A DNA stretch of 64,000 nt from Moniliella sp. 'wahieum'. Taxonomy: Eukaryota. The stretch is taken from the NCBI GenBank assembly GCA_003971905.1, contig RSEE01000049.1:434001-498000 (forward strand), written 5' to 3'. This document shows, in pieces, positions 412 to 52,831 of this stretch; positions within the stretch are counted from its first letter, which is position 1; each line of letters begins with the position of its first letter. The translations under genes were made by a program, and so were the position numbers. Under the pieces are notes generated by a model that was not told where the DNA came from, did not search any database, and saw only the letters and a list, made by a program, of their open reading frames with translations.

Positions 412-863
412 GATGGACGTGGAGGGGAGTGGGGGGGAAGGGGTCCAGGCGCAGGCGGGAGGGAGGGGGGGGGTGCGCTGGGCGGAGGCGGTGGTGGGCG
501 AGAGCTCGGGAGCAGCGGCGCGCGGCGAGGCTGGCCGCCGCAGGACTCGCTTCCTGCCGCCCGGCCTGTTCCGCACAGCAGCGCCCCACGGGGGGGCACT
601 GCCGCCAACCCTACTGCGTTGCGATTTTTCTACGCACTGCATTCTGTCGCCCGCTGTCGCCTGCAGGCAGCACAGCGCCTGCCCGCCCTCCGAGCCATCA
701 CCGGCACATCACACCAGCCTGCGAGGGGGTCTCATGTGCAGGTCACATGTGATGTTGGGACATGATGCATGGCGTCATGCACATGATGGTCCTGTCTCAG
801 GCTGCTGCTGCTCGGGCCGTTGCCACTGGGCACGCCCGTCCCCCCCCAGCGCTCACTTGCTAT

Positions 864-1720
864 ATGCCCACGACGCCCCTATCTCGCCCTCCACCGCCAG
901 CCCCACCCCTACTTGCACGTGCTTCCCACTCGCTTCCGTCCCACCACCGCATCCCACATGCCGCCCCCGCGCAAGACGCAGCCTGCCATCCAGCAGATGC
1001 TGTTCCCAGCCGCTCGCCCCACGCACAAGGCCCGATCTGCCTCCGCAGCGCCCAACAGCACCACGGCAAGAGCAAGAGCAAGAGCACGAACACGAACAAA
1101 AGCAAGGTCATGCCCTTGCACCCTCCCCGCCCGCCTCTTCCATTCCCAGTGAGGCAGATCTGACCGATGCGCGCACCTCTCCCGCTCCTCCGCAGGTGGG
1201 GGCCATCAGCAGCGATGCCGACGAGGACGAGGAGGAGTACCCAGATGAGGAGCCAGAAACGAGCAGTGGTGGAACACCTGCCTCTCCTGCCTCTCCTTCC
1301 TCGTCTGGCTCTGTCTCGCTAGCTAAATCGCAGCAGAGCCAACCTGGACGTATTCCCAATGCGCACTCGCCGAAGCGCATGGCGGCGTGGAAACCGTCAG
1401 TTGCCCAATTGCACGATACGGCCAAGTTGCCCGAGCTGCATGGGACGATCCGGCATTCGATGCGTACTGGAACGTAGCCAAGGCCAAGCTACGCTACACG
1501 CAAGTCAAACCTGGTATGCCCCCTACTTTTTGGCCACCTCGCATGCGTTTCCACGACCCGGATCCTAGTTCATGTCGAAGGGGAGAATCGCGTACAGATC
1601 ATGCTGCGAGTGTTTGACCTGGATCCCCAGTGAGCGCCAACCCGCCTCGTCTCTCTATGTGTATTGCTGGCTTGAAGCACTGACTCTTTCTCTAGGTACG
1701 GCCATCAAAAGGCATGACTA
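864..1720 (+). CDS. Hypothetical protein (P/S/E-rich N-terminus, short ordered C-terminus)
   Basis: Coding-like frames: acidic DADEDEEEYPDEE, then ...AAWDDPAFDAYWNVAKAKLRYTQVKPGMPPTFWPPRMRF; boundaries uncertain. Confidence 0.4.
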
Positions 1721-1940
1721 GGCTGGCGCGATGGAAGCGGGCTCAAGCGCTAGGGCTCGATCCGCCCGAGGGGGTACGTGCGATGCTGGAAACAAAGCAA
1801 GGCCAGTTGGAGCTGAACCGATCCGTTCTCGAGCGATACTTATTCTAAGATCCGTGAATCAATCAATGTTGTAACTGGGCATACATATATGTGAAGGGAA
1901 ACAGAGGTACTTTGCAACGAATAGAGCCAAGCGTCATTCA

Positions 1941-4616: not shown

Positions 4617-5089
4617 GATGGTGGCGGGGCGGGGGGCTAGGACCCGGCAGCGCCTGGAGCGCAGGGGCGGAATGGCGGCTGGGGGCGGGCGGAACAGGCG
4701 GGGCGGGGGGAGAGCGGGCGAGGACGGAGAATGTGTCAGCGGTCATTGGCAGTGCGCGTCATGCACCCTGCATGCTGCTGTGACGTGGCGAAGACAACAC
4801 CTGCGCTTTGGGATCGTCACGCGCCAGCGTCATGCATCATGCGTCTGGCCTCCGACATTCGACGGGAGAACGCGCGTAGGACGCCGCACGGGGGCAGTGA
4901 GGCGAGGGGTGGCCAGGTGCAGCGCAGCAACAGACGAGCGCAGCGCCAGAGGCCGTATTTTTTTCTCGCCTGCGCCCGCCCGACTTGGGGCGACGGCAGG
5001 GCAGCACGCCCAACGGAGGCGCGGGGACGCGGCACCTCTTCCTCCTGGCCACCACCTCCCCCCCCCCCCCCCCCCCCCAACACACCGCC

Positions 5090-6494: not shown

Positions 6495-7694
6495 GCCGTC
6501 TCCCTCCACCTGCCCCCGAGGGAAATCTCTACCTTCGCTTCTTTCCCAGATACCGCCGACACTCCATTGAGGTCTCTTTCCTTGCACCTGGACGTTCGGT
6601 CCCCCCCATCCTCTTTCTCTTTCCCCTTTCCCCGCTCGCGTTAGCAATCTCTATAAGTTGACCACATTCCTTCTTCATCGGATATGGAGAATCATCTCTC
6701 ATAGGGACCTTCACAGAGCAAGGCGTTTACTAAAAGTGGGGGCGGGGGGGGGGGGGGTGAATCCTAATTATACGGCATGTGAATCGGATCGATGGATGCA
6801 TAAAATAGCACAAGTGTAAATCACAAGAATTGGCTTCACTGAACCAAGCTTGCGCTGGTTCATAATGTCGATGCATCATCGACGTTGCCCACATCCATTG
6901 CCAAATGATGTCGTTCAGGATAATATCAAAGGTCTCGATCGATGTCTGCTCGATGTGGGACCGGTAATGGCCTCCGGCCCAGAATCTGGCTCCTGTGCCG
7001 CAGACTTACAAGTGGGCACGAAAGGTTCTCCCAGTCCCTTCAATGCCAGTGCCGCTATGTGAAGCGGAATCTGCTTGCGGACAACATATAGGCTGGGTTG
7101 GTCCGCAAGCGAACAATTTCAGGTAGAATGAGAGCGCCTCCATCTCGTAGCTCAGGGACATGTCCACATCCTTAGGGTCTGGTCGTATCCGATGCCCGGG
7201 CAGGAGGACGAGCAGGCAAGGCTGGGGGAGCCGCTTCTGTCTGGCCGTCAAACCCGCTTGACATATCTGCGTTGCCATGAAGACGACTAATGGCAGGCAA
7301 AACCTACGTTCTTTCAAAACCATTTCGCAGCTGGCTTGTTGGCTTTCACGTTGAACGTTCAGTTGAACGTTGAATCAACGTTCCATTACGTTGATAACGT
7401 TGACGTTGAATCATCACATGTGACATGTGACATGTGATATCAGTGCATCATGCATCAGACAAGCTCTTGGGAACTTCCGCCGATTAACCGATTCACGACT
7501 CCTGTCCGTCCAGCCACACAAAAACCCCAAGATGCTGTGCTCCTCAAGTACCTAGTAGTGCACCATTATGTGGGGCGTGCGTATCAACCGAATTCATTGT
7601 TCCCGCGCGGGCCCATCCCCACATCACGATTCTGGCCAGCCCACGTAATCCCCTTCCCTCCACACCACCACCGCCGCCCACCGCCAAGACAGCC

Positions 7695-9642: not shown

Positions 9643-10225
9643 TGTGGAGCAAGTGATGAGAAACGTTAGGTGGATGGATGAACGTGGCAGGGGCTGAAGG
9701 CGCCACATCAAGCAGGCGCGTATGCCCGCCGCAACGAGCCTTTTATTGCGCCTCGAAAAGCGATAGGGTGGGTTGGGTTAGACTCGTGGGCTTGGCGAAG
9801 CCCTCACGGAGTTTACATTTCAATTCGCATTATTTCCAAAACATGGCATGAATATTGAAGCGTCAAAGCTAGTGACTTCAGTGCTGCTAGTGATGTACTC
9901 GAGTAGTCTGGGTAGAATATGACCTGCATCATGCATCAATCCGCATCTCCACCAGACAAGTGCAGCGGCATCAAGGCCATTGTGAGCATTGAGCATGAGC
10001 CTACCGCGTGTGCATGTGCTTGCTACACCATCCGCTGTCGTGTGTTTCATTCTATCAATTGTTCCTGTCGTGCCAATGTGTGTGGCTCGTGCATTACGGC
10101 AACGATGGGAACATCGTTTCAATGGGAGCACGCCAGGAAAGCCTATGGAGTGAAGTGGAAACTCGAAACGGGCATGCTTTTGTACGAAAGACAACGCAAG
10201 ATTATGGCACAGGGCACCATGGCCA

Positions 10226-11689: not shown

Positions 11690-12751
11690 GATCAGCGCTT
11701 GTATCGAAATGACCTGGTGTTGGAGGTCGACGTGCGGAGCACAGGCGAAATAAGCAGGCGGACAGGAAAAGCAAAAAAATAAGAGAGCGGAATGCCGAGC
11801 CCACACCTTTCCGCCAACACCGCGATTCCGCCGATAGGTAAAATGGGATGGGTAGATAATTAGCTGGGGAACACTAGGAAACCCCTACTGGCCGGTGAGA
11901 CCCTGAAGCCGGAGGTCGCTTGACCCCTGCCGGCCAGCCGCAGAGGCTATAAGCCCTAACCACTAACCGCTTATCAGAACCAGCACGGCACCCGTGTTAA
12001 ATGTTGCGAAGACATACCTTCTTCGACATCAGTACAAAACGTCGGACGTCGAGCTCAGCGTCTACACCAGCAGACGGCAATTACGGGGAAACATTCAGTG
12101 TACCATTATCGATTATCTTCCAACGAGGTAGCGCGAGCGTAGATACGAAGAATGAAGAACGTGCTGGTATATAGTCATCAAGTGATCGAGCGCTGAGCCA
12201 TCTCCAATGAGGCACTTCTCTTACTAGTAAAACCCTCTGTAAATTTTCTTCCTTCCAGAGCTCAAACATCTTACTGACCGTCTTGGGGGTATGGTATCCA
12301 CACGTCGCCACAACCAAGGGGAGGGGTGTTGGCTTTTGAGTGTACCCCTGGTACTTGACGATCTTGTAGAGCGCTCCGCTGGCTCTCAGAGGGCGTGTGG
12401 TACAGTAAACTATTTTGGAACTATTATAGAACACAGAGACAACACACGGATGAAGAAAGCTCGTCAAGTAATTCAAATGGTGACGAGTCGTATATACATC
12501 AACGAGAGAGTGAGAAGGGAAAACAAGTAACGGTGGTTTCCATTCAAAGCCATCAACAGCTGTATCCGCATGATAACCACGGGCGCAAGGTCTATCAGAT
12601 AGGGCTGACGAAGACGAGCCGTGGCGGGTGGGTGTGCCCGATGAATGAAACCACACAGGGGAGTGAGAGAAGAGGGAGGGGATCGGCGATACTGTTCAAT
12701 CGAAGGCCGGAAGCGGGGGTAGGGCGCTCTGACAGAGTTGCGAATGCGTGT

Positions 12752-15107: not shown

Positions 15108-18100
15108 GCTTTTATATGCAGAAAGGGAGGTAAGGACGTACGGGAAGCCATAGTGATAACGATCGAAGAATGTGCACGGATCGAAGGGACGGGGATCAAG
15201 CCCAACGCAGAGCCTTCAGCGATGAAGTGTGGGGATGAGGGGGTCGGCTGAAATTATGGGGTTGTAGTTTTACCAGCAGGTGGTAAGAAAACTACAGCGG
15301 CAAGGGGAGGGTCCAAGGATGAAAAAGAGAATCCACGGAGGGTATGCGTCGCTTATATATGCATCGCTGATGTGTGCAAATGCGATCAGACTCCCATATA
15401 CTTGGGGAAAACCCATGATACAGAAGAGACTCAGGTCAGGCGCTAGAGACAGCCACAGCCGTAGACCGCGCTCCCTCTACCGCAAAAGCCCAGCCCCAGC
15501 ACCTGAGGCAGTGTGTGGGCAGACAAAGGACAGGATTCTACGTATCCAGTGGTAATGCATAATGGCGGAGCCACAGCAGCTAGCTAGCTTATCTTGGCCC
15601 CGACGGTTCTTGCTATATAATACGGACGCCAACACTGCCCCCCTATGGCGGGAAGCAAATCGAGGCTTAAGCCCCCCCCGCAATGTCAATACAGGTACAG
15701 GGCCAAGCTTGGCAACGGCTGACACTGGCGCCAAGCCGCGCGAAATTTCGACGCAACACTGCACTAGTGCTGGGTGGCGGCATTTTTGCGTCGACGGATG
15801 GCAGTGTTATACCGTGGCCTTGGCCTCAGGCGCTCTTGGCACACACCGCCGCCTTGCCTATCTCTCACAGCTGCGTATCTATATCAACTAAAAGCCTCTC
15901 GTGGAAGGTGGCACCTGATGGTGCCTGCCGTTCCTGCATTGGGTGTCCCTGGATAACATGGATGACAACATGTGGCCTCTGAGAGATCTGGAGGAAGAAG
16001 CGCCGGACGCACTGTGGCATGCACAGAAGATAAGCACTCCCCCAGACATTCGGCGAAGGTGACACCGTTGGCAACGAATAATCGTTGAGGTCATTAATCA
16101 TTAACGGCATGCCTTCGTATATTCCAGCCTCTTGCAGTGGAAGCTGTAACAAAAGGACACACAAATCGTTAATTGTTATGACACCGCTGCGGCTCAGCGC
16201 TCAGACTGAACACGGAACGTACTGAACGAAGGCGCACTAATCTTTCGACGTATAAAGCTCCACAAAAGATTGGCCGACGAAAGAGATAATAAAGATGTGT
16301 ATAGAGACGAGATGAGAGCCGGCGCTGACCTATATGCTTTTGTTACGGCGTTTTGTATGAATTAGAAACGACGATGTAATAGATATTCCCTATGCCTTTT
16401 CCTTTATATTCTCCCCTCCTACCTACTGACCGCAGGCTGATTAAAGTGGTGCCTTGTGCTGATTAAAGTGGTGCCTTGTGCCGCCACTTTAAGAGGGCTG
16501 CTGAAACTTGAATGGCTGTAAACGCAGCATGTGAGCGCTTAGTAGTTACTACGCCGACATGAACCGCGTTTTTGTGATGCATGTGATGAGAGCGCCTGAG
16601 CCCTTCTGCCAGAGGTTTGAAGCTTGAAGCCTCAGGCCCTGATGGCTGAACTGATGTGCTTAGAGAGTCAGGCCTCAGGAGCTAATCAACCTGATTGCTC
16701 AGCTGAGCGGCTGAGCGGACAGACTGACTGGACATGGTATGGGACAAGGATGGTCGAGATGGCATCTTCTGTGGCCCACTGCAGAGGCTAGCCCCGCAAA
16801 ACGTATCATTCATCATACATCATCGACATTCATGATATTCATGCATCATGTTATGTCGGTGAATATTGAACGAGACTATGTATCTCCGCACGGCGGCACC
16901 GCCGCACTGACAGTGACTACTAGTGAGTTCTCACTTCTGAGATCTGAGAGAGAGAAACGCTGAGACCTGTGACATTGGGGATTAATTGATGCTACGATGG
17001 ACCACAGATTGATGGATCGAATTGATCATCGATGATTGTTCATGACATGTACGCGCCCCCCTACTGTACGGGATCTCGGAAGTGCGCCTTAGTGCGCCCC
17101 CTGCTGGAAGGCTTTCGCGGGCCGTTTTTTGTTTTTAAATCGGGTCGCTATAGTTCTGTTTGGGGTCTCTGCGCAGTGCATCGTATGCATACCGATACTA
17201 CAAGTACACAGAAGGTGTAAGAAGAGAGGGGAGGCGCCATTAGTTCCAGTCACTAGTTACTAGGCACACAGTTATACGGTCCCAAAACCTGTTTCGACTT
17301 CCCGGCGTGGCGCGCGCAGACCGAAACCATGCGTTTGCCAAGTCTGATCAATTGCCATCATGCTCCTCCATACACCATGCTTCTTCAAGCTTCAAGCTTC
17401 AATAGACAGGGTGGACAGGATGTTGTGAGATTTAGTGAGAACCGCAATCGTTGTATTCACATGCTGATGATCATCACTCTGTTGACTGAAATAGCAGAGG
17501 GCACTGGAAAAGGTCATATCGATCTGTGTACAGTTCAACGCTTATATAGTTTGTGTTGTGTATGTAGGATTCGCATCCAATCTCCGGTCTTGAGGTGTTT
17601 GCAAATACTACCCACACAGTGTATGTCATCCGGGCCTATAGGCCGAGGGGGTCTCCCAATCATCGCCCCATCCACGCCATATCCATGGGGCTGGTGCGAG
17701 CCGCATGCCTTATGGAACGGCGTAGCGCAAGAGAACCAGCGAAAACTCGCTAGAAACGTGCGGTATGAAGTACCGACGCTCGCTTCCCTCTTCCACGGAT
17801 GTGTCAAAGCAGCCCTGACCCCTTCCCCGGGCGGGTAGCCCTCCGCCGTAATGACCAGGGACACAAAAAGGCGACTGATGATGTGCTCACTTGAGGTCAT
17901 TTTTGCCTTGCCCCGTGTCGACAAAAACGTCCATCTCCTTATTCCTGCACAGCTCGTATACCGGGGTGGTGGGGGCGTGTTGGTGACGGACGCGGCGCCT
18001 CTCGGCGTCACGCGTCTTGTTCCCGAAGGAAGTCCAAGACATATTAGGTTGTACGATGTCATCAAGGTACTTTTGAAGGCAATGATGCTGTCATCTTGAT

Positions 18101-18317
18101 GCCTGTTCGGTTGGTGGTGGTCGTAGTGCCTGGGGCGCTTCAATTTGGCGAAGGGGCCTCAACAAAGACGGGGCTTGCCCCCCCCCCCATTGGCATATAC
18201 AGCTTGGCTGTGATCTCGTTCCCAATTCCAATCTCTTGTTCGCCCCAAGCGTCTCCCTCCTTTCCTCTTCCTTCGCTTCGCACATTGTCATCTGCTCTTG
18301 CTTTCTCCCCACGAACG

Positions 18318-20906: not shown

Positions 20907-21712
20907 AAAGGAGCAGCGCGAGAAGCCTGGATGGGAGAAGAGATGGGGGCAGGAGCCGAATAAGAGCCAGCGGCAGAGGCAGAAGCAGGGGCAGAAGCAG
21001 GAGCAGAAGCAGGAGCAGCCGTGGACGCAGACGGTGGCGTTGCGTGGGGGCTGGAATGATAGGTAAACGGGGTGGGAGGGTGCGTGCGCGATGGCGTATA
21101 GGAGAGGGTAGACGGGGGATGCGGTGGGGGCGAGTGCGGCGAGGGCGGAAGCGGTGGGTCTGCTGTGGGGAGTGCTGCCGGGAGGATTGTGGCAAAGGAG
21201 GTTTGCGGTCAATGATGGCCATGGTGGTGTGGGAGGGAGCGTGTGGGCTGCGAAAGGCTGCGAAGCAACACGCAGATGCTAATCGCCGCGCTAATCGGCC
21301 CAACTGAATGCACGAACCCATGCCAACCTTCAATTTCAATTCTGATATCGCTTGCCATACTTCGCTTCTCAAAGCCATTTGGGATGGCCACATGGCCAAA
21401 CTCTCTTGCTCCAGAGACACTCATATGGCTCAGCCACTTCAGTATTCCTGCATCATGCATCATGCTCGCCCAGAAAAGTTCCGACTTTTCCCTTTCGGAT
21501 CTGCAATACAACTATGCCTCCGGCGCGAGAGGACGAGGAGGGCGAGAAGACAAGGAAAGGGGACGGGGGGGGGCGTGAATTACTGCGTTACAAAATACTA
21601 TATCAACGAGGTCGCACGCGCACAGGGCTGACAATCATCCTTCTAAGTAGATGCATCCTCACCGGCGATGACTGGCATTCCCACCCTTCCACATTTTTGA
21701 GAGGGAAACAAG

Positions 21713-22063
21713 TGCTAGAGTGCGACTTGGGAGCACTCGCGATCCTATGGATCAGCTGCAAAGCAGCCTTCAGACAAGGCGTGAAGGCAAAGTGGTGAGC
21801 CACAAGTCTTCAAGCAACGTCTCATTGTGAGGAGCAACAGGTCAAGAAAGGAAGCAGAGGCGTACCTTCAGACAAGGCGTGAAGGCAAAGTGGTGAGCCA
21901 CAAGTCTTCAAGCAACGTCTGAAGGGAAGGAGAAAGGAGAGAGAAGGGAGATGGAGCGAGCAGGGCGTGCGCGGCCTGCGAGCGGAACGCTTCCGCTCGG
22001 CTAGGCGAGCGTCACCGATCCATTGAGGGCCGCGCAGGAGAACCCTAGCAGTACCCTCTAACA
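21713..22063 (-). repeat. 3' LTR (351 bp)
   Basis: TGCTAGAG...CTCTAACA (imperfect terminal inverted repeat); matches 25960-26312 except for one GA unit. Confidence 0.95.
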
Positions 22064-22071
22064 GCCCCCTC
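22064..22071 (-). other. Polypurine tract
   Basis: Minus strand GAGGGGGC abutting the TG of the 3' LTR. Confidence 0.7.
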
Positions 22072-22217
22072 GGTGAGCTCGCCAGACCACAGGTGGTGGT
22101 GGTCCTCGGCCAAGGGCCAAGGCATGGATGAAAGAAGAAAGGATGTCTCCAGCGCCTCTGGTCAAAAAGTGAAAGGAAAACATAATTGGCAAGCGATGTT
22201 GCCAAGTCAAGGTAAGA

Positions 22218-22570
22218 GAAACAGTATATTCAACGCATGGAGGTAAGGAGGAAGCGTAGAAAGTCACAGAGGTCAATTCAACTTGGAAGTATAAACAACA
22301 TGTTCCAAGTCGAAACAGGATGTTCAGCGTATGAGGGAGGAAGCGTAGAAAGTCATAGAGGTCAATTCAACTTGGAGGTAGAAAACATGTTCCAAGTCGA
22401 AAGAGTATGCTGAACGTGTGCAGGTAAGGAAGTTTTGAAAGTCATAGAGGTCGATTCAACTTGGAGATATAGACAACATATATGCCAAGTCGAACCGAAG
22501 CCAAAGTCGAACAGTAAAAACGTAGAGTTGGAGGTCGAGTAGAGCCATAGAGGCAATTCAACTGGAAAAG
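22218..22570. repeat. Tandem array of about 89-bp units, 3 full copies plus 1 degenerate, each containing an ACTTGG..CCAAGT inverted repeat
   Basis: GAAAGTCA.AGAGGTC.ATTCAACTTGGA at about 22259, 22348 and 22437; degenerate copy near 22545. Confidence 0.85.
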
Positions 22571-22859
22571 AAACCAACAAGTCAAAGTGGCACAGTCATG
22601 AAAAAGAGAAAAAAGGACCAAATTCAGGACAGAAAAAGGATGACGACTGGTTCAACCGCCACGCGGACCAGCGTCAACGATGGTTCGAAAGTACCTTGTA
22701 GGTGATCAGTACACTTCGCAAGCAGCACCGCTGGCAAAGGAGCGACCAAAGTCTTCCGGGCCCGGGTCAGGGATGAAGTGCAACGGCTGCTCATGTAGCG
22801 TACACTAGAGACAGTGCCTCCCGTCTTGAGACAGCCAAAGAACTCCCACTTGGGCCAGA

Positions 22860-23330
22860 AAGGAAACCATAGCCGCCCATGCAGCCCACATAGTCAACAG
22901 CACCGCCAATCTTGGAACGGTCAAGGTACCCCGCGCGCGGGTCAGGTAGGAAACGGCCACAACCATTAGTGTAACCTAAACCGTCAACAGCGCCACTGCT
23001 CTTGAGACGGTCGAAGTATCCCCCGCCCGGGTCAAGTAGAAAATTGCCACAACCATTAGTGTAGCCGAAACTGTCAACAGTAGCACTGGTCTTGGGACGG
23101 TCAAAGTACCCCCCGCCCGTGTCAAAGAGGAAACTGCCACCGCTGTCAGTGTAGCCCAAACATAAACGGTGCCCCCGATCGTCGATCGGTCAAAGTACCA
23201 CTGGTCCGAGTCAGGTAAGAAACTGCCACAGCCGCCCGTGTAGCCCAAATCGTAAACGGTGCCTGTGGTCTTGGAACGATCAAAATACCACCCGCCCGGG
23301 TCAGATAGGAAGCCGTCAGAACCGCCCATC
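22860..23330 (-). repeat. Coding tandem array, 90-bp / 30-aa unit, 5 copies plus degenerate ones
   Basis: Y(F/L)DR anchors at 22921, 23011, 23101, 23190 and 23280; consensus GCG.FL.DPGGGYFDRSK..G.VD.LGYT. Confidence 0.9.
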
Positions 23331-23799
23331 ATGTTGGGTGCAATGGGAGAGCGGGACGTTAAAGCAGAGCACACAAGAGGACCAACGAGTCCGCACATTA
23401 CCTCCCTAGCTAACCAAGTAAGAAGGGCAGCTAGGGTGGCTTGCGTCGGTGTTGGGCCCCGGCCAAGAGACCTCAGGTCAGTATCAATATTCTCCCCGAC
23501 ATGACAATGTGTGCCTGAGGGTCGGTGCCGTGCCCGTGCTTAATTTGGAACAGGCAGGCCTGCCAACACATGGTGAGTATCGCTGAAAAGGGTGGGTGGG
23601 AGGGAACAGTAAGGCAAGGTGGTCCGGGCGCGTAAATGCATGTGCGGAAGGACGGGGGCAGCCCCCCTTTTTCCCGCATCCCGTCGATGGCCGCAAGCTC
23701 TGACACAGCGGCAATCGCCTTCCCTGCGTATGGTGCTAGGCCGACCGTGCAAAGCTTGTCCGCAAGCTCGGCGACCGTTAATTCTCCATGTCCAGCCGC

Positions 23800-24496
23800 C
23801 AGGTCGACACCGCCACACGCCATCGGCCCCCCTTGATCGGACGCTCGGCCAATAGCAGCGCGCGATATCGGTCCCCCTTGGTCAGGCACCAGGCCGACAC
23901 GTCCACACGCCATCGGCCCCCCTTTGTCAGGCGCTTGGCCAATGGCACCACACGCGGTCGGCCCCCCTTTGTCGGGCGCCTGGCCAATAGCGCCACACGC
24001 TATCGGCCCCCCTTGGTCGGGTGCCTGATGGACGTCAATGGGAACCGGGCCACCAAGCGCCTGGTCGGACGCCATGCCATCCACCGGCCCCCCTTTGTCA
24101 GACGCTAGGCCAACCACCGGCCCCCCTTGATAGGGTGCCAAGCCAACCACCGGCCCCCCTTGTCAGACGCTAGGCCAACCACCGGCCCCCCTTCATCGGG
24201 TACCGGGCCAGCCATCGTTTCCTCTTCATCGGGTGAAGAGGCACCAAGCGCCATCGGCCCCCCTTGGCCAGGCGCCTGAACTTTAACAGGTACCAGGCCA
24301 CCGAGCGCCTGATCAGGTGCCATGCCATCTACCGTCCCCACTGTATCAGGCGCCAGGCCAGCCACCGGCCCCCCTTGATCGGGTGCCAAGTCAGCCATTG
24401 TTTCCCCTTCATCGGGTGCAAAGGCACCGAGCGTAATCAGCCCCCCTTTACGAGGCGACGGGACTGCAACGGGTACCGGGCCACCAAGCGCCTGAT
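23800..24496 (-). repeat. Coding tandem array of (A/V)PD(Q/K)GGP units, about 33-bp and 48-bp periods
   Basis: More than 12 occurrences of GLAPDQGGPV / GQAPDKGGP.ACG in ORFs 24105..25160 and 23473..24150. Confidence 0.85.
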
Positions 24497-25160
24497 CGGT
24501 TGTCTGATCCTGAGCCACGATAGCAACTGACATGGACCTGGGGGAATGCACCTCCCGTGACGCATAGTCACCACCCGCTGGGGGTAAGTCCGGGCCGACA
24601 GATGCCATCGCAGCCACAGGATCCGGCTTGGCGATAGCAGCTGGCGTGGACCTGGGGGAATGCACCTCCCGTGACACATAGTCACCACCCGCTGGGGGTA
24701 AGTCCGGGCCGACAGATGCCATCGCAGCCACAGGATCCGGTTCGGCGATAGCAGCTGGCGTGGACCTGGGGGAATGCACCCCCAGTGACGCATGGTCACC
24801 ACCCGCTGGGGGTAAATCCGGACCAACAGATGCCATCGCAACCGCTGAAACCTGAGCAGCAACAGCAACTGACCCCTCCTGAAGCGAATGCGCCCCCGAC
24901 GTCGTATGGACTTGATCCGCCGGTCGTGAATCAGGGTCGACGGATTCCATCGGAGCCACAAGGTCATGAACCACGACAGCAGGTGACATGGACTCGGAGG
25001 AATGTGCTTCCGACGGAATACAGGCACCATGTTCTGTGAGTAAGTCCGGGCCAACAGACGGCATTGCTGCAACAGGGTCATACCCAACAGCAGCTAACTC
25101 AGCCCCGGACTTGGGACTAGCGGGATGCATCGTCAGTAAATCAGGACCAACGCGTGGCAT
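24497..25160 (-). repeat. Coding tandem array, 114-bp / 38-aa unit, 5 copies plus a partial copy
   Basis: GGACCTGGGGGAATGCACC at 24534, 24648 and 24762 (period 114); peptide AMASVGPDLPPAGGD.AS..VHSPRSTPAAIA.PDPVA. Confidence 0.9.
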
Positions 25161-25955
25161 CTTGCCCAGAGGCTCATGGGCGACAGCAACTGGCTCACAC
25201 GCGGGCGAAGCAAGGTGTTCCGCTGGCTCGCTGGCACCCGAGCCGGGAAAGGCTCGTCAACGAGTGGTGCTGCAGCCAGAGGTATGCCAGCACGATCACG
25301 AGGGCAATCCACATGCTTGGGGCCAGACACGACCACACCTTGGGGCTCTCTGATACAGTCCGCTGGGTCGAGGAGCATGTCACGCATGGCGCGACTTCAG
25401 AGCGACACGCTTGCGAATGTGTTTGGAAGCCTGATCGATCTCGTACAGTTTCCAAGCAAGCCGCACATCACGGAGACACTGGTCCAGTTGCCACCGCAAG
25501 TCATCAATGCTAGAGAAGCAGTGGTTCCTGGTGTAAAAGGCATAGGCAACATAGAAGTCGGTCGGTGTGAGCAAGACGTCTTCGCCGCCATGGTCCTTGC
25601 TGTAGTTGGCAACGAGATTAGCCACCAAGGAGTCCTTGTCTGCAACTGTCGAACCAGGGAGCGGGGAGGCGATGCCACTCATCGGCATACCCCAGTGGCG
25701 AATGGTAGGAATGACTTCCAGGATGAACTTGGCAGCGACGTCCTCGTCAACGTCCGAAAGAACGGCGTTCAGTTTAGCCCAAGCATAAGTCGTGCCCTTG
25801 ATGCGAAAATCCGGCCACTTCGCTGTCGTGCCAGGGGCTATCCCGACTTGGGAGTTGGGGTCAAACTCGCCACGACGAACATACGCTTCCACAATGTCGC
25901 GAGGCGAGTAAACCGGGTGCGCAGAATGCGCAGAGGCAGAAGATAAGGGCGACAT
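25133..25955 (-). CDS. Gag-like ORF of the LTR element
   Basis: Starts at the ATG inside the PBS; helical-looking 191-aa ORF followed by a frameshifted remnant resembling a zinc knuckle (WSCLAP / HVDCPR) near 25300-25340. Confidence 0.55.
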
Positions 25956-25959
25956 AACC
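25947..25959 (-). other. Primer-binding site for the internal (anticodon) portion of initiator tRNA-Met
   Basis: Minus strand GGTTATGTCGCCC immediately after the 5' LTR. GGTTATG is complementary to CAUAACC of the tRNAiMet anticodon arm, as in copia/Ty5-type elements. It overlaps the gag ATG. Confidence 0.75.
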
Positions 25960-26312
25960 TGCTAGAGTGCGACTTGGGAGCACTCGCGATCCTATGGATC
26001 AGCTGCAAAGCAGCCTTCAGACAAGGCGTGAAGGCAAAGTGGTGAGCCACAAGTCTTCAAGCAACGTCTCATTGTGAGGAGCAACAGGTCAAGAAAGGAA
26101 GCAGAGGCGTACCTTCAGACAAGGCGTGAAGGCAAAGTGGTGAGCCACAAGTCTTCAAGCAACGTCTGAAGGGAAGGAGAAAGGAGAGAGAGAAGGGAGA
26201 TGGAGCGAGCAGGGCGTGCGCGGCCTGCGAGCGGAACGCTTCCGCTCGGCTAGGCGAGCGTCACCGATCCATTGAGGGCCGCGCAGGAGAACCCTAGCAG
26301 TACCCTCTAACA
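25960..26312 (-). repeat. 5' LTR (353 bp)
   Basis: Second copy of the LTR, directly adjacent to the PBS. Confidence 0.95.
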
Positions 26313-28536: not shown

Positions 28537-30638
28537 TCGCATCATTGATGTAATATCTCGCCTCCTCTCATCCAATAAGCCCTTTCTAGGGCCTTTATAT
28601 GTACGTTTTAATTGGTGAGATGGATGAGCGCATCGCGATGAGCGCTGAGCATGAACATCCTCCTGTAGTGTTAATGATTTGGGCCGAAGAATTCCAACCT
28701 GACGAGTGTTTTCGGGGGAACAGGAGAAACGCTCAACTTCAACTTCGACCCGACCATTTAAGCTCAAGCTCAGATGCAAAAATCAAAGGGCGTCCGGATC
28801 AGTCCGACCCTGTAGTTTTGTTTGCATCCAATATTCGTAGCCGCCTGCTTCCTAACCGCTATGGTCAAGATACCGAGTAGGCCGACTTGTTGTACCTTCC
28901 GTTTAACGTTTAACTTTCAAAAGCAAGCAAAAGCCCTCAGGCCCCAGGCCTCGCTGTACTGGCAGTTCTCTTCCGGGTTCAAGCTTAAAGCTCTTTGAGC
29001 TCACTCGGAAGGGGTTTTCAATCCATTCTGTAGGGTGTGCGTCTCACCTTTTCTTGCTCAGCCGTATTTCCACGTGTCGCTCAGCAACATCAGCGCTCGC
29101 GTTGCCCTTTCTCCGCTGCCCGCCCACTATGATACTACTACGGTAAGCGTGTTTTGCATGGTGGGGTGTGTGGTCTTTCACACGCGCTTCATTACATCCT
29201 GTGCCTGTGCCCCGCTCGGTGGTCATCGGCCATCCCCTATACGCTCTCGCTCCCGGTTTGCTATGCATAACTTTGTCCTCTGTCTCATCCAAGACCAAGG
29301 CCAAGGCCAGAAGGCGGTGGTGAGACATAGGGTCTTTATGGCCTTCGAGAGAGTAATGTGATCGCACTGTGGTGGCGATGTTTGTCGACTGCGGCCAACA
29401 AAAACAAGCGCCTACAGAGGAACAATAAACAGCCAGTCGCCACCAGGGACTAAGCTGCGGAGCAAGGAAAACAGAGGAGGGAAGAGAAAACGACGGAGGA
29501 ATTCTTAGAAGCCTGAGGCCTGAGAGGAGGGGGACTGGAGCGACGTTGGCCGAACACTCGAGCCACCCACGACGGGTCAATAGGCAATCATACGGATAGA
29601 TACGAATAAGGAGAAGAAAGGTCGTCAACCCGACTGTTTATTATGAAAAAAGTGTCCGAAGAGAGAGTATGCCAGAACCACCTGTCTTTTGGCTGGTGTG
29701 CCCAAGCTAAGAGGCTCGAATTTGTTCCATCTCTCTTCCCTTGCACTGGCATCGCGACCATGAATCCCATTCTCATTTCCGACGGTACGGATGTAATTGT
29801 TAGGGTGTTTGGACGAAGCAGCATGGTGCGTGCCACCCTAATGGCCAGCATTGCGTCAACCGACGGAATGATTACCGCGTTCGTCAAGCCCTATATATAG
29901 GTGTCGGAGATGCGGCTCCAGCCCAGCGGCTGCGGCTGCAGGAAAGGAGCCCAGCCTCCAGATGGTCCCTAGCAATTGGCCACGGCTACTCCGCCCGCTT
30001 ACCATCTATTGGAGTCGAAGCCCCATTCAATGGGAAGCATGTCAAGTGTGATCATCATAGATGAGTGAATGGGCGATTGGTTGCTGCGACGGTTGAGCAA
30101 AGACCGGTCGACCGCGGTTGGGGGACGATAACGACTTGGGAAAAATGCGCAGGGATAAGGAACCCTTGTGCGGCACTTTTCCAAGTTCCGACTATCAGCT
30201 TGGGGCTAAGAGTTACAATCACTATGAGGCCCATGGAGAAAATCACAAATGTATGTGATGCTTTTGTTTGCCGAGTTGGAAATCTGCCCTACCAGAATTG
30301 TAGCCGATCGGAGCTTCAAGCTTCACCGAAGGAGTAGGAACCGGCCAAGCCAAAAACACTGAAGCCTCGCGAGGAAGAGTGGGGTTCAGTACGTTCATGC
30401 GTCCATTGCAAGAACGAAGGGATGCATCGTGACAGAAAGGATGCAGCGTGACAGAAAGGATACAACGTATAGTGCAAACGTCTAACATGTAACACATGTA
30501 ATTCGCAGCCGAGTAGCTGGATTCCATCTGCTATTTGAGTGGCGAGAGTGTAACATGTAAAGCCCTGTCCCAACAAACAGCCGAAGATTTGTAACACATA
30601 CGCAAAGCCGCGCGCTCTGTTTACAGGTCGCCTTGTAG

Positions 30639-30683
30639 TGAAGCTTGAAGCTTGAAGCTTGAAGCTTGAAGCTTGAAGCTTGA
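30639..30683. repeat. (TGAAGCT)6 TGA heptamer array
   Basis: Perfect 7-bp tandem repeat read directly from the sequence. Confidence 0.95.
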
Positions 30684-31549
30684 AGGGGCACGCTCTACTG
30701 TGGGTTGAACCGGGACTTTCATCCATTTTTCGCTCTCTTTCTTCTTCTTCCTATAGTAAGTACTAGCCTCTGCTTGATCATAGCTGCCACAATGGAGTTG
30801 CGGGGACCTCTCTGAGGCCAGAGCGCCGGGAGCCAAAAACTCCCTCCCCACCCCCACATTGTCTTCGTAGTCTATGAAGTGGCGCAAAACGAAGGCCGAG
30901 GCCCCCCGGCCGGGGGACACACTAACCATCGGGAAATGACCCGGTGATGCATCGGCGAAAAGGGACGCTGAGTACCTGAGTACCTGAGTAACCCATGTGC
31001 AGCGGACATGCCACACTGGGGTAGCAATGTCATGTCAAATTTCACTAGTCCAAGGTCGAGGATGGCCGAGGATGGCCGAGATGCAACCCCAGACTAACCC
31101 CCAACCATGACGTTTAAAATTTAACGTTTGACGTTTAACGTTTAACATCGCACGTGAATACGTGAAAAGGAACGCTGCTATACGCATGATGGGTGATGCA
31201 TGCCGCATGCCGCGTGACATGTGACAGCGTTTTTACGCTCAGGCCGTGGCGCGATTATACGTCGACGCAGGCACACGCGACGGGAAAAGCGGGGCAGCTG
31301 ACGCTGGCCAGTGCCACCGGCCGCTACGCGCCACTGCGCCCTACGACGCGCAGTGGAGTACTGAGACTGTTTTTTAACTCAGTACTGAGTACCAGAGAAA
31401 CAGGCATATTGCTAAGCGGGGAGCGGCATCAACGTCAACGTTCAACCCTATCAGGCCTTTTAAGAAAGGTGGAAGAGCGCATTGGCCACTATAGCATCTT
31501 TCTTTCGCGCCGCACCAACTCCTGAGCGTTTCCCTGGCGATCCCTCCTT

Positions 31550-34199: not shown

Positions 34200-35558
34200 C
34201 CAGGGGAGCAGGGGCGCAGGCTCAGCGCTCAGAGCCCTCCGAAGTTGGTCTGATTAGTATGTTAGCTTGGCCGTCATAGTACTCGCGCGTAGGGTCGTCA
34301 TGGCCAGGGGAAGAAGGAAGCGAAGGCTCTGAATGCGTCCCAGTGGCACTTGCCGTTTTTGTCGCAGTCCGCTTGCTCTCGAAGTCGATACAGCTCCTTC
34401 TCCCGGCGTTGGCAGACGTTGCCGTCGCCTCGTGTGCCTTCTGGCAAGGCTTGTACGGGTTACAGGCCTCTCAGATCTCACTGATCATTCGTGCCCGAGT
34501 CCCTCGGTGTGTGTGGCCCGCTTCCGTACAACATTCGGCATCGTCTGTTTCTCCCTCTTTGCATCCTCCTTCTCGAGCTCTGCAGCGAATTGCTGCCGAG
34601 CAGGTAGGTGTGTGCTTGGGCCTAGAGCTGGGGCACCTGAGGATCTTTCAGCCTCAGAAACCTCCAGCACAGCATCCTGGATGCGTGGACTACTAACTAC
34701 AGACGGGACAGAGCGCACATGCTTGAGGCCGTGCATCCCTTGCACAGCACACACGGCTGCCTCTTGCAGCAGGCACCTGGAAGCGCACGTAAGCCACGTA
34801 AGCGGAATTGAGCAGCTCAGCGTCGCCGCGCTGCAGCTGAGGCTCAGCCCTACGGCCGGCCGACTTGGCGATCTTGGCATCGCACCAGTGCGTACGTACA
34901 CAGCGCCTCGGGCATCCGACCACTCTTGCCTGTACCACACACGCCCACCACCGCAGTCCGCTTCCTGAAGGCGGACCGTCAGCCTTCAGCGCTTCACCTG
35001 GGGCTCCGGCCCGCTGAGGCCGGCACTGAGGCACTGAGTGAGTACTGAGGGAGGCCGGATGCGTGGTGCATGATGGGCGATGCATGATGTGGGGTGCTGA
35101 TCGGCAGCCACCGAGACAGAGGGTCGGTGTGGGGGCAGTGTGTGTTGGATTTTGCAGCGTCTAGGACCCGGTGCCGCGCGAGGGCCCGCTGTGCTGGTCG
35201 TGGGCACACAGCCGTACTGCTGCGCACATCCCCTCTCGTAGAGCTTAAAGCCAGCATCCTTCTGCCACGCGCGTGGCATTCGTGTACTGCACTGCCCCGT
35301 GCTTGATCACATCCCTCGGTGCAGAATAACGGACTGGCCCTGTGCCTGTCTTCACCCACCGCAGTCGTCATGCATCGCGATCTAGCTTGCTGGGCGCTGG
35401 CCTCGCCCAGCCAAGCTGCCAGCTTCAAGCTTCACCTCCCCTCGCTTTGGACCCACCCGAAACCACCCACCGTCTTGCTTGTCTCGCATCTTCCTCCCCC
35501 TCTCCATCAATCTCCTACCCCCTGCTCATTTCCTCGCTCGAACGACACTCTTTTGGCC

Positions 35559-36447: not shown

Positions 36448-37775
36448 TTCGAAGAAGCATTGTGCAAGTTCGATTTTTGGTACGAGGCGATCCCTAGCTC
36501 CCTGCCTCTTGTTTCCTATCTCTCTTCCCCTCCTCCATCACCTACCGGCTGGCCTGTTAGTTCTCCAAAGCAACCCAGTAGCGCGAGGCCGCCAATGCCT
36601 CTTCCCCCTCACTTTTTCTTTGCCTCGTTGCAACATACTTTTATTACCCGATTCGCGCTTTGTCGTTATATCGAGCATATTGTGCTTGTGCAGTTATGGT
36701 TTAGTTGCCCTTCTCCTTGTTACGTTTCTTGCCGGTGGGTGTGACTGGGTGGATAGGCCTCATAGGTCTTCCAGGAACGGACCAAGGGTGAAGGAGAGGG
36801 TTCAAGTCGGGTAAAATGGACATGCTTTTTCGTCCACTACAGTGGTAGTAGGGTGCGTCTACACTCCCGATGCTGTGGATGCATGTGGCTGTGGAAGAAA
36901 TAGACCCTTTGGCATGCAGTGCATGTATAATGACAAAACAATGGGCGCTTCCGTAGCTGTGGTGGATCGCCCAATCTTGCTTGGTGAACCATGTAGCCCA
37001 CGGCTACTAAGTATGACAGCACATGAAAGGATGGGTACGCCTTGTGTGGGCCAAAAGTCCGTGGCGGTGGGGGTAAATATGAGCATCTCTTTGCTTCAGT
37101 GTGTTCTCGCCTCCATCATACACATGCCCCTGCTATCAGTATATCACAGAACTCAAGGTGTAACAGGCTGTGTACCACGGACCGATCTTCCGTCCACAGG
37201 GCACAGAGAGTGCTGGAGTAACCCTAACCCTAGAGTTCCACAAATGAGAGTTCCACAAAGGAGAGTTCCACAGTAAGATCTCGGGATACTCAGAACGTAC
37301 CACCTTGCATGGGTGTTGCAGCCGTCTTCCTCCTCTTTAATCATCAGGCTGCTTCAATGTCCCTATTGGGCAGGACTTCCAGTGGTCTCATGCATCATGG
37401 ATGCACACCTCATCACGAAACCTAACTTCAACGAAGGGACTGCGCTACAGGGGCTGCATACACGTATTAACGCCATGCAATCAGATCACTTTGGAGGCAC
37501 GGTACATAGCTACAATACAAGTGGTGCTGCAGTGGTGCGGAAATGGGCATGCAATCTTTTTGACATCGACAGCATCGGAACAAAGGGAGATAAAAAGCAA
37601 GGGCTGCAGCGAAAAGCAAAAGGGCAGCAGCGAAAAGCAAGGAATTAATGCAAGTGAGAAACTAGACAAGCACCCAAACAAGGCAGCTAAGGCAAGGCAA
37701 GGCAAGGTGAATCGCAGGTTGGGTCCGCTTCAGGCTGAGAGCTGAGAGCGGAGAGGCGATCCGTCACGGTAAGCT

Positions 37776-43540: not shown

Positions 43541-44138
43541 TTCTACTGTCTGAGGGCAAGAGGCAAAAGGTGTGGTGGCTAGGAGCCAGGCCAGGTAGGC
43601 AGCAGAGTTGCTCATCTGTCGACTGACAAAGCGCAATCCCCTGCGTGCCAGTCGTTTCACACGGTAAGGAACCGCGGCATTAACCCAGTGATGTTGATGC
43701 ATGGTGCATTCGATGATGGAGACAGCGCCTCCAGCGGATCCCCTTAAGACCGTCACGTTTCAAAGTTGTTGTAGTTGCGTACCAGTGACGTCCTTGTGAG
43801 TGCTCTCCGCTGGCTGAGCGCCCATGCAGCTCTTATGGATACTCACGGTACTCACGTGAGTAGTGAGTGGTGAGTGCACTGAGCCAAGGGGCTTAAAGAA
43901 GCTGGACCCGCGCGGGACCAGGTGGGCCTCGCTCGACTACTGCGCCGGTTACCGGTTACCGGTTACCCGTTACAACCATCATTAGGGTCATGGTGTTTGC
44001 GCTTCGCGCAGTGCTCCAGTCGCTTAGCTAGTTGGCCACCCAGCTAGCTAATCAGTCAGTGACAACATACCGGCATGATCAGGACGCAGGTCACGTCGCA
44101 CAAAACCACACCAGCAATGCTGCGACGACGCCCAATGA

Positions 44139-45714: not shown

Positions 45715-46439
45715 GAAATTGAAATGTTGGTACATGCACACGTGACATGGATGGGGGTGTGCGTTAGGGCCTGGCGCAGTGACTAGTGACTAGTGACTAG
45801 TGACGCGTGACGGCAGGCAGAGGAAAGCATAGCACTGGCATGGCTTCCCGGGCGGAGGGCATACCAGGCACCAGGGGTAAACTGCTTAGCGCTTGCACTG
45901 AACACGGCAACAAGAGGCTCAGGCCTCCCCTGAGGCTCATCTGAGGAGAGCCTGGACCGCAGCGCTTACAGATGGGCCCGTGACATGTGGCATGCTGACA
46001 CCCGCTGACAAAGGTGCCCAGTGGCATGTGTGGCGCTGCACCCCAACTGGTCTGGAGCGCGTGAAAATACAGCGACTTAAAGTGACTGCGGCACTGTGTT
46101 GCTTAAAACACTGCCGCTGTGCGGCGGGGATAGCTGGCCCCGTGCGAATATCCGAATGCCCGTCCGTCGCTACGAAGCGTACTGGTACGCCAAGGGCAAA
46201 CACAGCCGCTGTGGTAGCGTCGTAGCTGCAAAGCCCCCTCCGTGCTCTTCCTGGCCATGTCCTGGGGGGGAAGGCAGATCTGCGATTTGAAAGATACCAA
46301 CGGCTCTCGGGTGATCTGCTCGATTCACGAGGAGTAGCACTGTGGATCAGTAACCTTTGGCCAAAAGTGTGCAATAGTGCTCTTCTTGCCCCCCCCCCAC
46401 ACCCACCACCACCACCCCCTGCTTCCCATCGCCCCTCTC

Positions 46440-50308: not shown

Positions 50309-50579
50309 TTGGGAGGCGGATGAAGAGGTTTTGATGCAGCAATCTACTCTTCCCATTTGGTGACTCTATGCACATGTCCGCGTTTCTGGCCCAAGGTCCG
50401 CTTAGCTAGCTCTATAGATTGTAGGATTCCTCGTGCAAGCTTGCATTTTGCAAGTGTGCAAAATGGGGCACAAGTGGCCACTGCTATAGTCATCCCCTGA
50501 TACCCCCAAAGCGAGCGCCATTGCGGTGAACACATGAGCGGAGAAGTTGGATTATTATGAAAAGAGAACCCGACGAGAC

Positions 50580-52080
50580 TTAGACAACCGCAGCAACCAA
50601 CCCAACCGCAAGCCCCGAGGCAAGGAGCAAGACGTAGGTATGCGGAGCGAGCAAGGCCGAAGCCGGGCTTGACGAGCTGGTCGGTCCGGTGACCGCAGAG
50701 GAAGTACGGGAGGATGGGGAAGATACTGCAACCGCCGATGAGGAGGAGGGAGCGACGACGGAACTGCTCGTCACAGTCGACGAGGCAGAAGAGCTGGTGC
50801 TGGATGGAGCAAGGGACAGGGACGGTCTGGTGTTGTTCAAACCAAGACTAAACAGACGCATTTGGGTTTCGGGGTTGGAGTAGACTTTGTAGTCTTGGTG
50901 CGCCGTGTAAGCAAGGAAGGCAAAGCTGTGGTTGGCGCCCGCTGGGTTGCCTGGGATGCCATCGATGGATTTTTGGAAGTTGAGGCACCGGTTCAAGTGT
51001 GAGTTACCTTCGCATTGAGCAGCTGGATGCGTGTCTCCGGCACCATAGTCCGACAGGCCACAGACAGTGGTGACCTGCCGAGCGAAAAAAGTGGTAAGCG
51101 TAGCGTTTTTCGCGTTGGTGAGATTGGCAGAGTAAGTAGAATTTTGGTACGAGGGGATGTTACCGTCCAGTCCATAGGGCCATTCGGTATAGTTCCCGCC
51201 CGGTTGACAAGTCGACAGGTTGGTCACCGCAGGTTGATCCGTCACTTCCACATAGGCACCCGGGTTGCCAGAGAGAAAAGTCATGTAAGGATCTTGAACC
51301 GCGTTGGGCTTGCGCAGGACGGCGTACCGCTGGGTGAAGGAGCCCCCCTACTTGACCGGCCACGATGACTGAGTTCAAGTTGGGGAAATTGGTCTGATTG
51401 AAGAAGAAGTCGACCAAGAGATCAAGGGCATCAAACGCACTTGCATTGGTTGTGCCGGGACCAGCGGCCATGCTGCCATCGGACCACGATTCGAAATAGA
51501 CATCTTTCGGGCCAGCGGCGCCAGCGCTAGACTCGAGCGGGCTCATCCATGCCACCCCTCCCACAATCACATCTCCCATGTCCCCCCATCGTTTCGTTGG
51601 TAGCGGCACAGATGAGGGAGTTGCGGACCAGATCATGTAGCTCCACACATCCCGGGCCAAACCTGGGTTGACAGCGATAGCCCGTTTTACCTTGCTCCAG
51701 TCCTTGCGCTCAATATAGTACGGAACCACGGCGCCGGTTGCCCGGTCCAGAACCAAGTCGCGGTAAAAGTCAAAGCCCGTGACGTTGGGAAGCTGTGTCC
51801 AGCCAGTGTTGACACTGCCTACTGCCTCGGCTGCACCAATAAAGATGGTGTTGCACCAAGGGACCTGAGACGCACTGTCATTGCACCAGGGCGAGGTTGC
51901 CGTTCTGGTAGCCCGTTCCATAGTACGAGGCAATGGCCGTGGGGTCGCGTGTATTGTTGCCAGGCGTATTGCCGGGGCCACCATCTTGGCGGTGAACAAT
52001 GCCAGGGCGAAAGGGAACGGTAGAGCAGTGGACAGCGGTGGTCACGAAAAGCACAGTAGCCCCAGACGAGAGATGAGCAT
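50580..52080 (-). CDS. Secreted, probably GPI-anchored alpha/beta-hydrolase-like protein
   Basis: Hydrophobic N-terminus; SAFDALDLLVDFFFNQTNFPNLNSVIVAG..GG.F.QRYA, NPGAY, WPYGL; Ser-rich stalk and hydrophobic C-terminus. Confidence 0.65.
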
Positions 52081-52831
52081 GGGCCGAGGGGTAGGATGGT
52101 GACGGAGGAAGCGGGCGGAGAGGCGAAGAGTGGCTCTATCGTCTTGGCCGCAGAGCAGCGCTATCCGGACGAGAGAATGGAAATGTGGGTTTGGATTTGC
52201 GAGCAACTCGGGCGGGAGAAGGTGGGGCGGGATGATGGATAGATATGCTGTGCGGCGGGTCAATCGACCAGCGCATGCTTCCGGCTTGGAGGCGGGCAGT
52301 CGGGGTCACTTAGCCACTGCCCCATGGTCCATTTTACGGGTTTGGGGCCAGGCCCTGCCACGCAATGGAGGCCTGGCCACATTCAAGCTTCAAGGTTTAA
52401 GCTTTAAGCGAGGACAGGCGAGGATTTTCGGAGTCTCGGTCTCAGTAACTCAGTACTCAGGTGCCTGAAGATCGGTCACGCGTCTGCATGATGTGGAGAC
52501 TGGGGCCCCAAGCAACACAGATTCTCGATTATCGATCACCAGCACCATGGTGCATGGGTGCCAGAGAGCTGCGCCTCAGGATCCAGGCTGAGTATATTGA
52601 GTACCAGTCCTGCATCCGAAGCCAGAGAAACGAAAGAAACCCCCAGCGCGCTCAGCCCGCTTATAGCCCAAGTATCCAACGAACTCATCAATCTTCCTCC
52701 CAAATATGTAAGAGACGGAACGCATATCCCGTTGGCCTACTATGCTCAGCCCCTCAACTCATTCTCTACACGCCAGGACGTATTTCACCTCTTCGCGTGC
52801 TAGGTATTTGCCCTGGGAAGGGGACCCGGCG

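Follow-up and report, generated by a model that had tools for sequence, protein, structure and literature searches.

The locus

The window analysed here is a stretch of 64,000 nucleotides of fungal DNA (Moniliella sp. 'wahieum', assembly GCA_003971905.1, contig RSEE01000049.1, positions 434,001 to 498,000 of the forward strand). Its non-coding parts carry a recurrent short motif in which a TNA triplet is repeated in 7-bp phase around a self-complementary 4-mer. The motif follows a simple product rule: at each event five bases at a TNA site are copied directly and two are copied as their reverse complement, with a net gain of 7 bp.

The G+C content of the window is 56% and its open reading frames (ORFs) are interrupted in the eukaryotic manner. 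Pfam matches were obtained for Ebp2, a POT/PTR2 transporter, Gar1, a mitochondrial carrier, a lysine methyltransferase, eIF3 subunit D (eIF3d), Gcd10, cyclophilin, Mob1, Aim19 and VID27, altogether a set of ordinary fungal housekeeping genes. Gene positions were judged by eye from the Pfam-supported ORFs. The top named match of the eIF3d protein is from Tilletiaria anomala (56% identity), followed among the named matches by other Ustilaginomycotina; two other eIF3d proteins are closer, with 89% and 83% identity. By its protein matches the host is thus evidently a smut-related basidiomycete, which fits the suggestion of a smut relative made in a preliminary description of the window. The TCACGAT-type repeats of smut fungi mentioned there were not found among the literature matches listed, which consisted of titles and the beginnings of abstracts.

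A long terminal repeat (LTR) element is located at 21713-26312. The 353-bp LTRs are 99.4% identical, with a 2-base GA slip as their sole indel; the ends of the element are TG..CA and its target duplication is the 5-bp ACAAG. It is young and non-autonomous, with a 3.9-kb interior that is packed with tandem repeats, 33 to 228 bp in size, and gave no Pfam match. Comparison of the window with itself for paralogues offset by 7 bases found this LTR pair as the sole long repeat. Long homopolymers are present at 5058-5078 (C21), 6738-6757 (G20, 89% pure) and 57343-57359 (C17).

Enrichment, product rule and distribution of the motif

The 23 10-mers quoted in the preliminary description were all found to be exact in sequence and position. 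The general pattern T[ACGT]A-N4-T[ACGT]A occurs 185 times in the window, with a palindromic spacer in 68 cases and a non-palindromic spacer in 117. Markov models of order 1, 3 and 5, with 40 simulations each, were used as background. They predict 8.4, 6.7 and 9.9 palindromic matches, respectively (maxima 17, 15 and 16), and 134, 102 and 94 non-palindromic ones. The excess is therefore found in the palindromic class only and is about 7-10 fold, as the comparison proposed in the preliminary description had anticipated. The 68 palindromic matches group into 50 clusters. Fifteen of the 16 possible palindromic 4-mers are present, TATA alone being missing, so that the earlier count of ten was too low.

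The enrichment is specific to a spacer of four bases. When spacers of 2 to 10 bases between triplets with the same N were compared, palindromic spacers of four were found 55 times against 2.2 expected, while the other lengths were near expectation. The odd spacers are not enriched; the largest count among the other lengths is 13 against 7.9 for a spacer of three, and a spacer of five gives 4 against 2.1. The 7-bp phase is also seen without reference to TNA. Exact runs of period 7 with at least five matched positions number 133, compared with 75-95 for neighbouring periods not divisible by three, and those with at least seven matched positions number 31, compared with 8-16.

The spacer is not free; it is written from the flank of each site. 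With primes denoting the complements of flank bases, a site yz-TNA-ab is read either as yzTNA-z'y'-yzTNA-ab (form A) or as the mirror product yz-TNAab-b'a'-TNAab (form B). At least one flank fits in 47 of the 55 palindromic matches with the same N, and both flanks fit in 15. The palindromic matches in which no flank fits (14 of 68) are comparable in number to the 7-10 expected by chance. Exact 12-mers that follow the rule number 62 against 0.2 expected. Form A accounts for 30 of them (0.15 expected) and form B for 32 (0.07 expected; Markov order 3, maximum 1 each in 40 simulations), so that the two mirror forms are equally common. The preliminary description had held that symmetry and phase are constant while the spacer varies. 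The 7-bp phase and the palindromy stand, but a freely varying spacer does not agree with the 47 flank-derived cases.

Other products are rare at the same kind of site. Of 103 TNA-N4-TNA sites with the same N, 15 have form A only, 17 form B only and 15 both. A plain 7-bp duplication was found at two of the others, the product of a hairpin opening one base from the tip at one and a doubly inverted product at one, while the remaining 52 match none of these products. If the centre triplet is left free, TNA is the centre of 62 of 85 12-mers, where the model expects 9.9 overall and 0.2 with TNA; several of the 23 non-TNA 12-mers are the same arrays in another register. When the length of the repeated core was varied from 1 to 7, a sequence-specific excess appeared at length three only, which corresponds to a 7-bp duplication. 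The excesses at periods 6, 9 and 10 are due to ordinary repeats, and a core of one base is found 113 times against 113.2 expected. A core of four bases is found 7 times against 1.9 expected, and three of the seven come from a single array at 30968-30990, the sole such case. This is a perfect 8-bp array, CTGAGTAC repeated 2.9 times, which resembles a scar with a 4-base core (CTGA + GTAC) as from an 8-bp duplication. Full 10-bp palindromes, in which N is flipped, number 6 against 2.0 expected; examples are found at 743, 7414 and 31379.

The 62 exact 12-mers occupy 35 separate places, to which no strand was assigned: 25 places of 12 nucleotides, 4 of 14 nucleotides in which both flanks fit, and 6 arrays. 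Single sites of form A with a TCA centre have the core TGCA at 7446-7457 and 9927-9938, GCGC at 16192-16203 and 34220-34231, AGCT at 30314-30325 and 35423-35434, GATC at 34469-34480 and GTAC at 52448-52459. With a TGA centre, form A is found with the core ACGT at 7362-7373 and GGCC at 29512-29523, and with a TAA centre with CATG at 30549-30560 and AATT at 31113-31124. The site at 7362-7373 lies within an AACGTT-rich stretch, 7345-7410, a dense and irregular cluster of AACGTT and ACGTTGA with shifting phase and flipped N that may consist of several overlapping scars and is not parsable into single events.

Single sites of form B with a TCA centre have the core TGCA at 4830-4841, 16839-16850 and 37388-37399, TTAA at 16091-16102, GGCC at 16668-16679, ATAT at 26656-26667 and ACGT at 31435-31446. 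A TGA centre is found in form B with AGCT at 16618-16629, GCGC at 28639-28650 and CATG at 31215-31226, a TTA centre with TCGA at 12106-12117, and a TAA centre with TGCA at 15553-15564 and CATG at 30483-30494. The four single sites in which both flanks fit are at 16936-16949 (TGA, core GATC), 21451-21464 (TCA, core TGCA), 28901-28914 and 31133-31146 (both TTA, core ACGT).

The six arrays have 2 to 6 added units of perfect identity, and a single extra unit is found at the other 29 of the 35 places. Two-unit arrays are located at 7419-7437 (TGA, core CATG), where TCACA ahead of the array makes a perfect 10-bp palindrome with flipped N, at 17383-17401 (TCA, core AGCT) and at 43947-43967 (TTA, core CCGG). 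The longest array, 30639-30685, consists of TGAAG followed by six CT-TGAAG units with 100% identity. Two adjoining scars with the core AGCT, TCAAG-CT-TCAAG and TTAAG-CT-TTAAG, make up 52383-52408. In the array at 45778-45812 the left flank AG is followed in CTAG units, of which there are three, and the right flank CG in one CGCG unit. This two-core array is the clearest case of each core being copied from its own flank, an outcome beyond both slippage and a code of binding sites.

Slippage of 7-bp units, as in an ordinary microsatellite or minisatellite, shares with the window the short, perfect, non-coding arrays and may lengthen arrays that already exist, of which the six places are examples. 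It is an extremely improbable origin of the motif. The unit in the window is bound by a rule and mostly represents a single event, as at the 29 places, whereas slippage creates no inverted dinucleotide and selects no TNA. It cannot produce the two different cores at 45778, and plain 7-bp duplications that lack the palindrome are two against 47 rule-bound sites. Perfect or near-perfect intergenic tandem duplications outside the TNA rule are also present in the window, with units of 22 bp at 16436-16481, 19 bp at 30416-30461 and 15 bp at 37232-37272.

The places are concentrated outside coding DNA. Stop-free ORFs of at least 200 amino acids cover 49.6% of the window and contain 4 of the 35 places against 17.4 expected, and the Pfam-matched ORFs among the first 35 scanned, which cover 16.8%, contain one against 5.9 expected. 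The unequal density in coding and intergenic DNA that the preliminary description had proposed to look for was thus found, by a crude ORF-based measure, with 31 of the 35 places outside long ORFs. These 31 places lie in 32 kb, which gives a density of about one per kilobase. An insertion of 7 bp is a frameshift and will be purged from coding DNA in any case, so that the non-coding bias is uninformative on function.

The location, together with some clusters that by eye are intergenic relative to the Pfam-supported ORFs, would also suit functional arrays, in which a dimeric factor would bind TNA half-sites in 7-bp phase and selection would maintain them in promoters. The recurrence of one sequence is another point in favour of such arrays. 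The scar version TGATGCATGATG occurs 10 times with at most one mismatch against 0.43 expected, at positions 4828, 7446, 9927, 16811, 21451, 26576, 35064, 35078, 43695 and 58109. This recurrence may reflect a preferred CA-TSA-TG target, the commonness of the dinucleotide CA/TG or a retained ATGCAT motif. However, the spacer is dictated by the local flank, and a palindrome that mirrors its flank speaks for a scar of mutation rather than a grammar of binding sites. Further points against functional arrays are the use of 15 of the 16 palindromes, the predominance of single extra units and the removal of 7-bp insertions from coding DNA by selection regardless of any function. The centres also roughly follow availability: 26 places have TSA, 8 have TWA and one is mixed, where 1090 TSA and 490 TWA sites are available outside long ORFs, and any N serves in the centre. 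Binding by a dimeric factor, one of two origins offered in the preliminary description, is therefore unsupported and very improbable as the source of the motif, although some scars may have been co-opted secondarily.

The scars appear to have accumulated over a period of time. Places that are one change away from the rule number 30 against 6.1 expected; the excess of about 24 near-matches relative to 35 exact places suggests a mean age of roughly 5% divergence, as a rough estimate. None of the 35 places lies in the young 4.6-kb LTR element, where about four are expected at the density found outside ORFs. The scar-free young element and the excess of places with one change together indicate that the scars build up with time.

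A natural background was obtained from 80 fungal metagenome loci around eIF3d, in total 723,428 bp. A close relative was sought in the metagenome contigs by means of the eIF3d protein and none was found; the best eIF3d segments of the 80 loci are 34-52% identical, which is too distant for orthologous comparison, and the loci serve as background only. They contain 16 rule 12-mers in 14 places, or 1.24 places per 64 kb compared with 35 in the window. This is a weak excess over the 4.4 12-mers of the Markov expectation (maximum 8 in 10 simulations). The 12-mers are found in ten loci (L040, L044, L050, L051, L055, L057, L058, L072, L073 and L080), all of which have Agaricomycete proteins as best eIF3d match. 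The same scar may thus be present at low density in other basidiomycetes, which is a hint and not a result.

Direct observations in the window comprise the product rule, the specificity for TNA and 7 bp, two symmetric forms, palindromes of even length, a location in non-coding DNA and a spread of ages.

Probable excision scars and alternative origins

The motifs are, on balance, probably scars of the excision of a cut-and-paste element, one whose target duplication is 7 bp long and centred on TNA and whose excision would leave blunt flank hairpins that are opened 2-3 nucleotides from the tip. A transposon, its duplication of 7 bp, hairpins with their point of opening and a heteroduplex step are all proposed from the sequence of the product. 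The other origin offered in the preliminary description, a hairpin or template-switch process that writes inverted duplications at TNA, is essentially borne out, with the correction that five bases are direct and two inverted, with a net gain of seven. Hairpin-ended breaks after excision explain the product better than replication template switching does. Two features are those of an excision footprint: in the 62 exact 12-mers TNA recurs together with one flanking dinucleotide 7 bp away, and in 47 of the 55 cases with the same N the two bases added match a flank dinucleotide in reverse complement.

The proposed series of events is as follows. A cut-and-paste transposon would insert and make a 7-bp target duplication, NN-TNA-NN. 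Excision would leave both flanks as blunt hairpins, with the strands joined directly opposite each other in the manner of RAG, Transib and the MULE element Muta1. A host nuclease would open each hairpin 2 nucleotides from its tip and give two palindromic 3' overhangs of 4 nucleotides, abb'a' and z'y'yz, each on a duplex whose end is exactly at TNA. Opening at 3 nucleotides would give an identical product, because the T of TNA pairs with A; opening at 4 would flip N to its complement and may account for the small excess of 10-bp palindromes. The two overhangs would then be ligated opposite each other without trimming, and replication or repair of the 4-nucleotide mismatch would fix one palindrome or the other. 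Ligation of overhangs and segregation of the mismatch predict equal forms and no mosaics, as observed. The scar would provide a second TNA with matching flanks, at which further events or replication slippage could extend the sequence to 7-bp arrays.

Several other models were rejected on account of their geometry. A 3-bp TNA duplication with flank hairpins predicts TNA-TN'A with a net gain of three, which was not seen. A symmetric 5-bp duplication predicts a one-base core in period 5, and cores of one base are at expectation. A 7-nucleotide staggered cut that is filled in predicts the plain duplications that are rare here (2 against 47), and a footprint derived from the element itself would not track the flank.

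A number of observations weigh against excision of a transposon. Terminal-inverted-repeat elements with a 3, 7, 8 or 9-bp duplication were not found in the window, and the sole inverted-repeat candidate with a 5-bp duplication looks like chance. No transposase domain was found in 129 ORFs (35 in a first scan, and 94 of the 108 ORFs of 125-199 amino acids). Insertion and excision are read from the sequences of the products, and empty sites were not seen. Published hairpin footprints are far more varied than these scars, although part of the uniformity here is ascertainment, as trimmed scars are unrecognisable. To our knowledge no described superfamily pairs a 7-bp TNA-centred duplication with blunt flank hairpins. 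An 11-bp product that keeps both overhangs was found once (12183) against 0.4 expected, and with flanks that do not fit. A 5-bp duplication with a one-sided inverted addition of two nucleotides would, moreover, give an identical sequence. The heptamer CTCACTG, a candidate element end, occurs 6 times in the window, where 11.2 are expected, and no two copies are arranged as the inverted ends of an element.

The absence of a transposon of the expected kind from the window and of a transposase from the ORFs scanned, and the uniformity of the scars relative to published transposon footprints, would be more easily met by templated insertion at which no mobile element takes part. Here TNA would be broken through a fragile structure or by a host nuclease that may be a domesticated transposase, and fold-back or template-switch repair would copy two bases backward and five forward. 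The product, which is partly a direct and partly an inverted copy of the immediate flank, has the composition expected of such repair. The direct copy of five bases is a difficulty, since it needs the same bases on both broken ends; these are readily supplied by a target duplication but not by a single break. If one break formed a hairpin, just the two inverted bases would be added, a filled 7-nucleotide stagger would give simple duplications, and snap-back priming at a 3-nucleotide TNA loop would presumably have no paired primer end. Insertion without an element is possible but rather unlikely on this evidence.

A more far-reaching form of this idea is that a host-encoded, hairpin-forming and TNA-directed nuclease, such as a domesticated transposase, keeps writing 7-bp units into the non-coding DNA without any mobile element, that it is the main source of new short tandem repeats adjoining genes, and that some of these have been co-opted as regulatory sites. 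This is a speculative proposal and, from the sequence evidence, quite unlikely. In a less radical version, the agent may be a transposon lineage not yet described, in which blunt hairpins like those of RAG/Transib go together with a 7-bp duplication centred on TNA.

Relation to known elements and implications

Excision through blunt flank hairpins finds its closest parallels in RAG, Transib and Muta1. In the coding joints of V(D)J recombination by RAG, and with Transib and Muta1, the bases beside the break are left as an even inverted copy, as from a hairpin opened about 2 nucleotides from the tip, and the scars in the window are alike in this respect. The even 4-base palindromes (55 against 2.2 expected) agree with the zero-offset hairpins of Transib and RAG joints. 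The target duplication of RAG and Transib is 5 bp, whereas the scars point to a 7-bp duplication centred on TNA, which is another point against excision by an enzyme of this kind.

Muta1 differs as well. Its flank hairpin is of 43+43 nucleotides in the sections available of PMC5499845, where hAT, Transib and RAG are also given as flank-hairpin enzymes. In the accessible part of PMC5225508, Muta1 makes 8-9 bp duplications, has no target preference and is precisely excised in about 90% of cases in yeast. The mostly precise excision and the 8-9 bp of Muta1 also speak against the proposed origin when set beside 7-bp scars that are almost invariant and very dense.

A hAT element from a lineage with 7-bp duplications, hAT7, with the usual Ac/Hermes chemistry is a further candidate. 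The hAT elements are cut-and-paste transposons that act via flank hairpins and leave the target duplication with short palindromic additions, as in the window; the duplication is 8 bp in hAT and 7 bp in hAT7, and the 7 bp of the window would follow from scar geometry. Duplications of 7 bp are reported from fungi for hAT7 in Pucciniales, where these basidiomycete rust elements group with Ac and Tam3, and for Kyakuja in Laccaria (PMC12730594, part of the text). Flank hairpins and palindromic footprints are likewise described for hAT in the portion available of PMC5873905. There, however, Ac/Ds palindromes have at their centre one base, complementary to that adjoining the element, and the footprints are heterogeneous, with 28 different ones in 128 excisions in Candida. 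The scars in the window are even and essentially of one type. The six footprint forms with a one-base offset that can be written on a 7-bp duplication occur one time in total, against 47 even scars, and none of the 129 ORFs gave a hAT domain. Palindromes of even length fit hairpins of the RAG/Transib/MULE type and not the hAT chemistry of Ac and Hermes, which makes a hAT7 element an improbable source.

Tc1/mariner elements leave a stereotyped short insertion at a duplicated target, and the extra bases come from the ends of the element itself and are the same everywhere. The scars differ in that the added bases are copies of the flank of each site. The reported 7-bp duplication of Kyakuja, a KDZ element of Agaricomycotina, matches the length proposed here, and the Agaricomycete-like contigs share the weak excess of scars. 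Kyakuja has CA..TG termini and no inverted ends in the part of PMC12730594 available, and Tcr1 of Chlamydomonas is a Kyakuja element according to the portion available of 10.1101/2022.06.16.496473. A KDZ gene was not found in the window. The Cryptococcus elements T1, CNIRT6, CNEST and KDZ were rejected as no match; the duplications given are 3 bp for CNIRT6, 2 bp (TA) for CNEST and 8 or 4-8 bp for KDZ, and no footprints are described for them in the available sections of PMC9942834 and PMC12810828.

The enzyme may accordingly be characterized by a profile, a 7-bp TNA-centred duplication and blunt flank hairpins, to which no family name is given. A full-text search, with matches represented partly by titles and the beginnings of abstracts, gave no description of a genome-wide 7-bp scar pattern of TNA and palindrome among the matches listed. 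In substance the scars are supported as a variant of the excision footprints made through flank hairpins, and they are unusual in their uniformity, their density and their role in building tandem repeats.

If excision through flank hairpins is the true origin, one transposon family or enzyme would be responsible for about one recognisable scar in each kilobase of non-coding DNA, and the 7-bp tandem repeats of this genome would stem mainly from the same agent. The window would then provide a clear natural example of the birth of repeats through insertion and excision. The geometry of the scar would also report the chemistry of the enzyme, that is the length of the duplication, the blunt hairpins and the point of opening, and could guide a search for it. 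The weak signal in Agaricomycetes suggests that the process may reach wider among the basidiomycetes.

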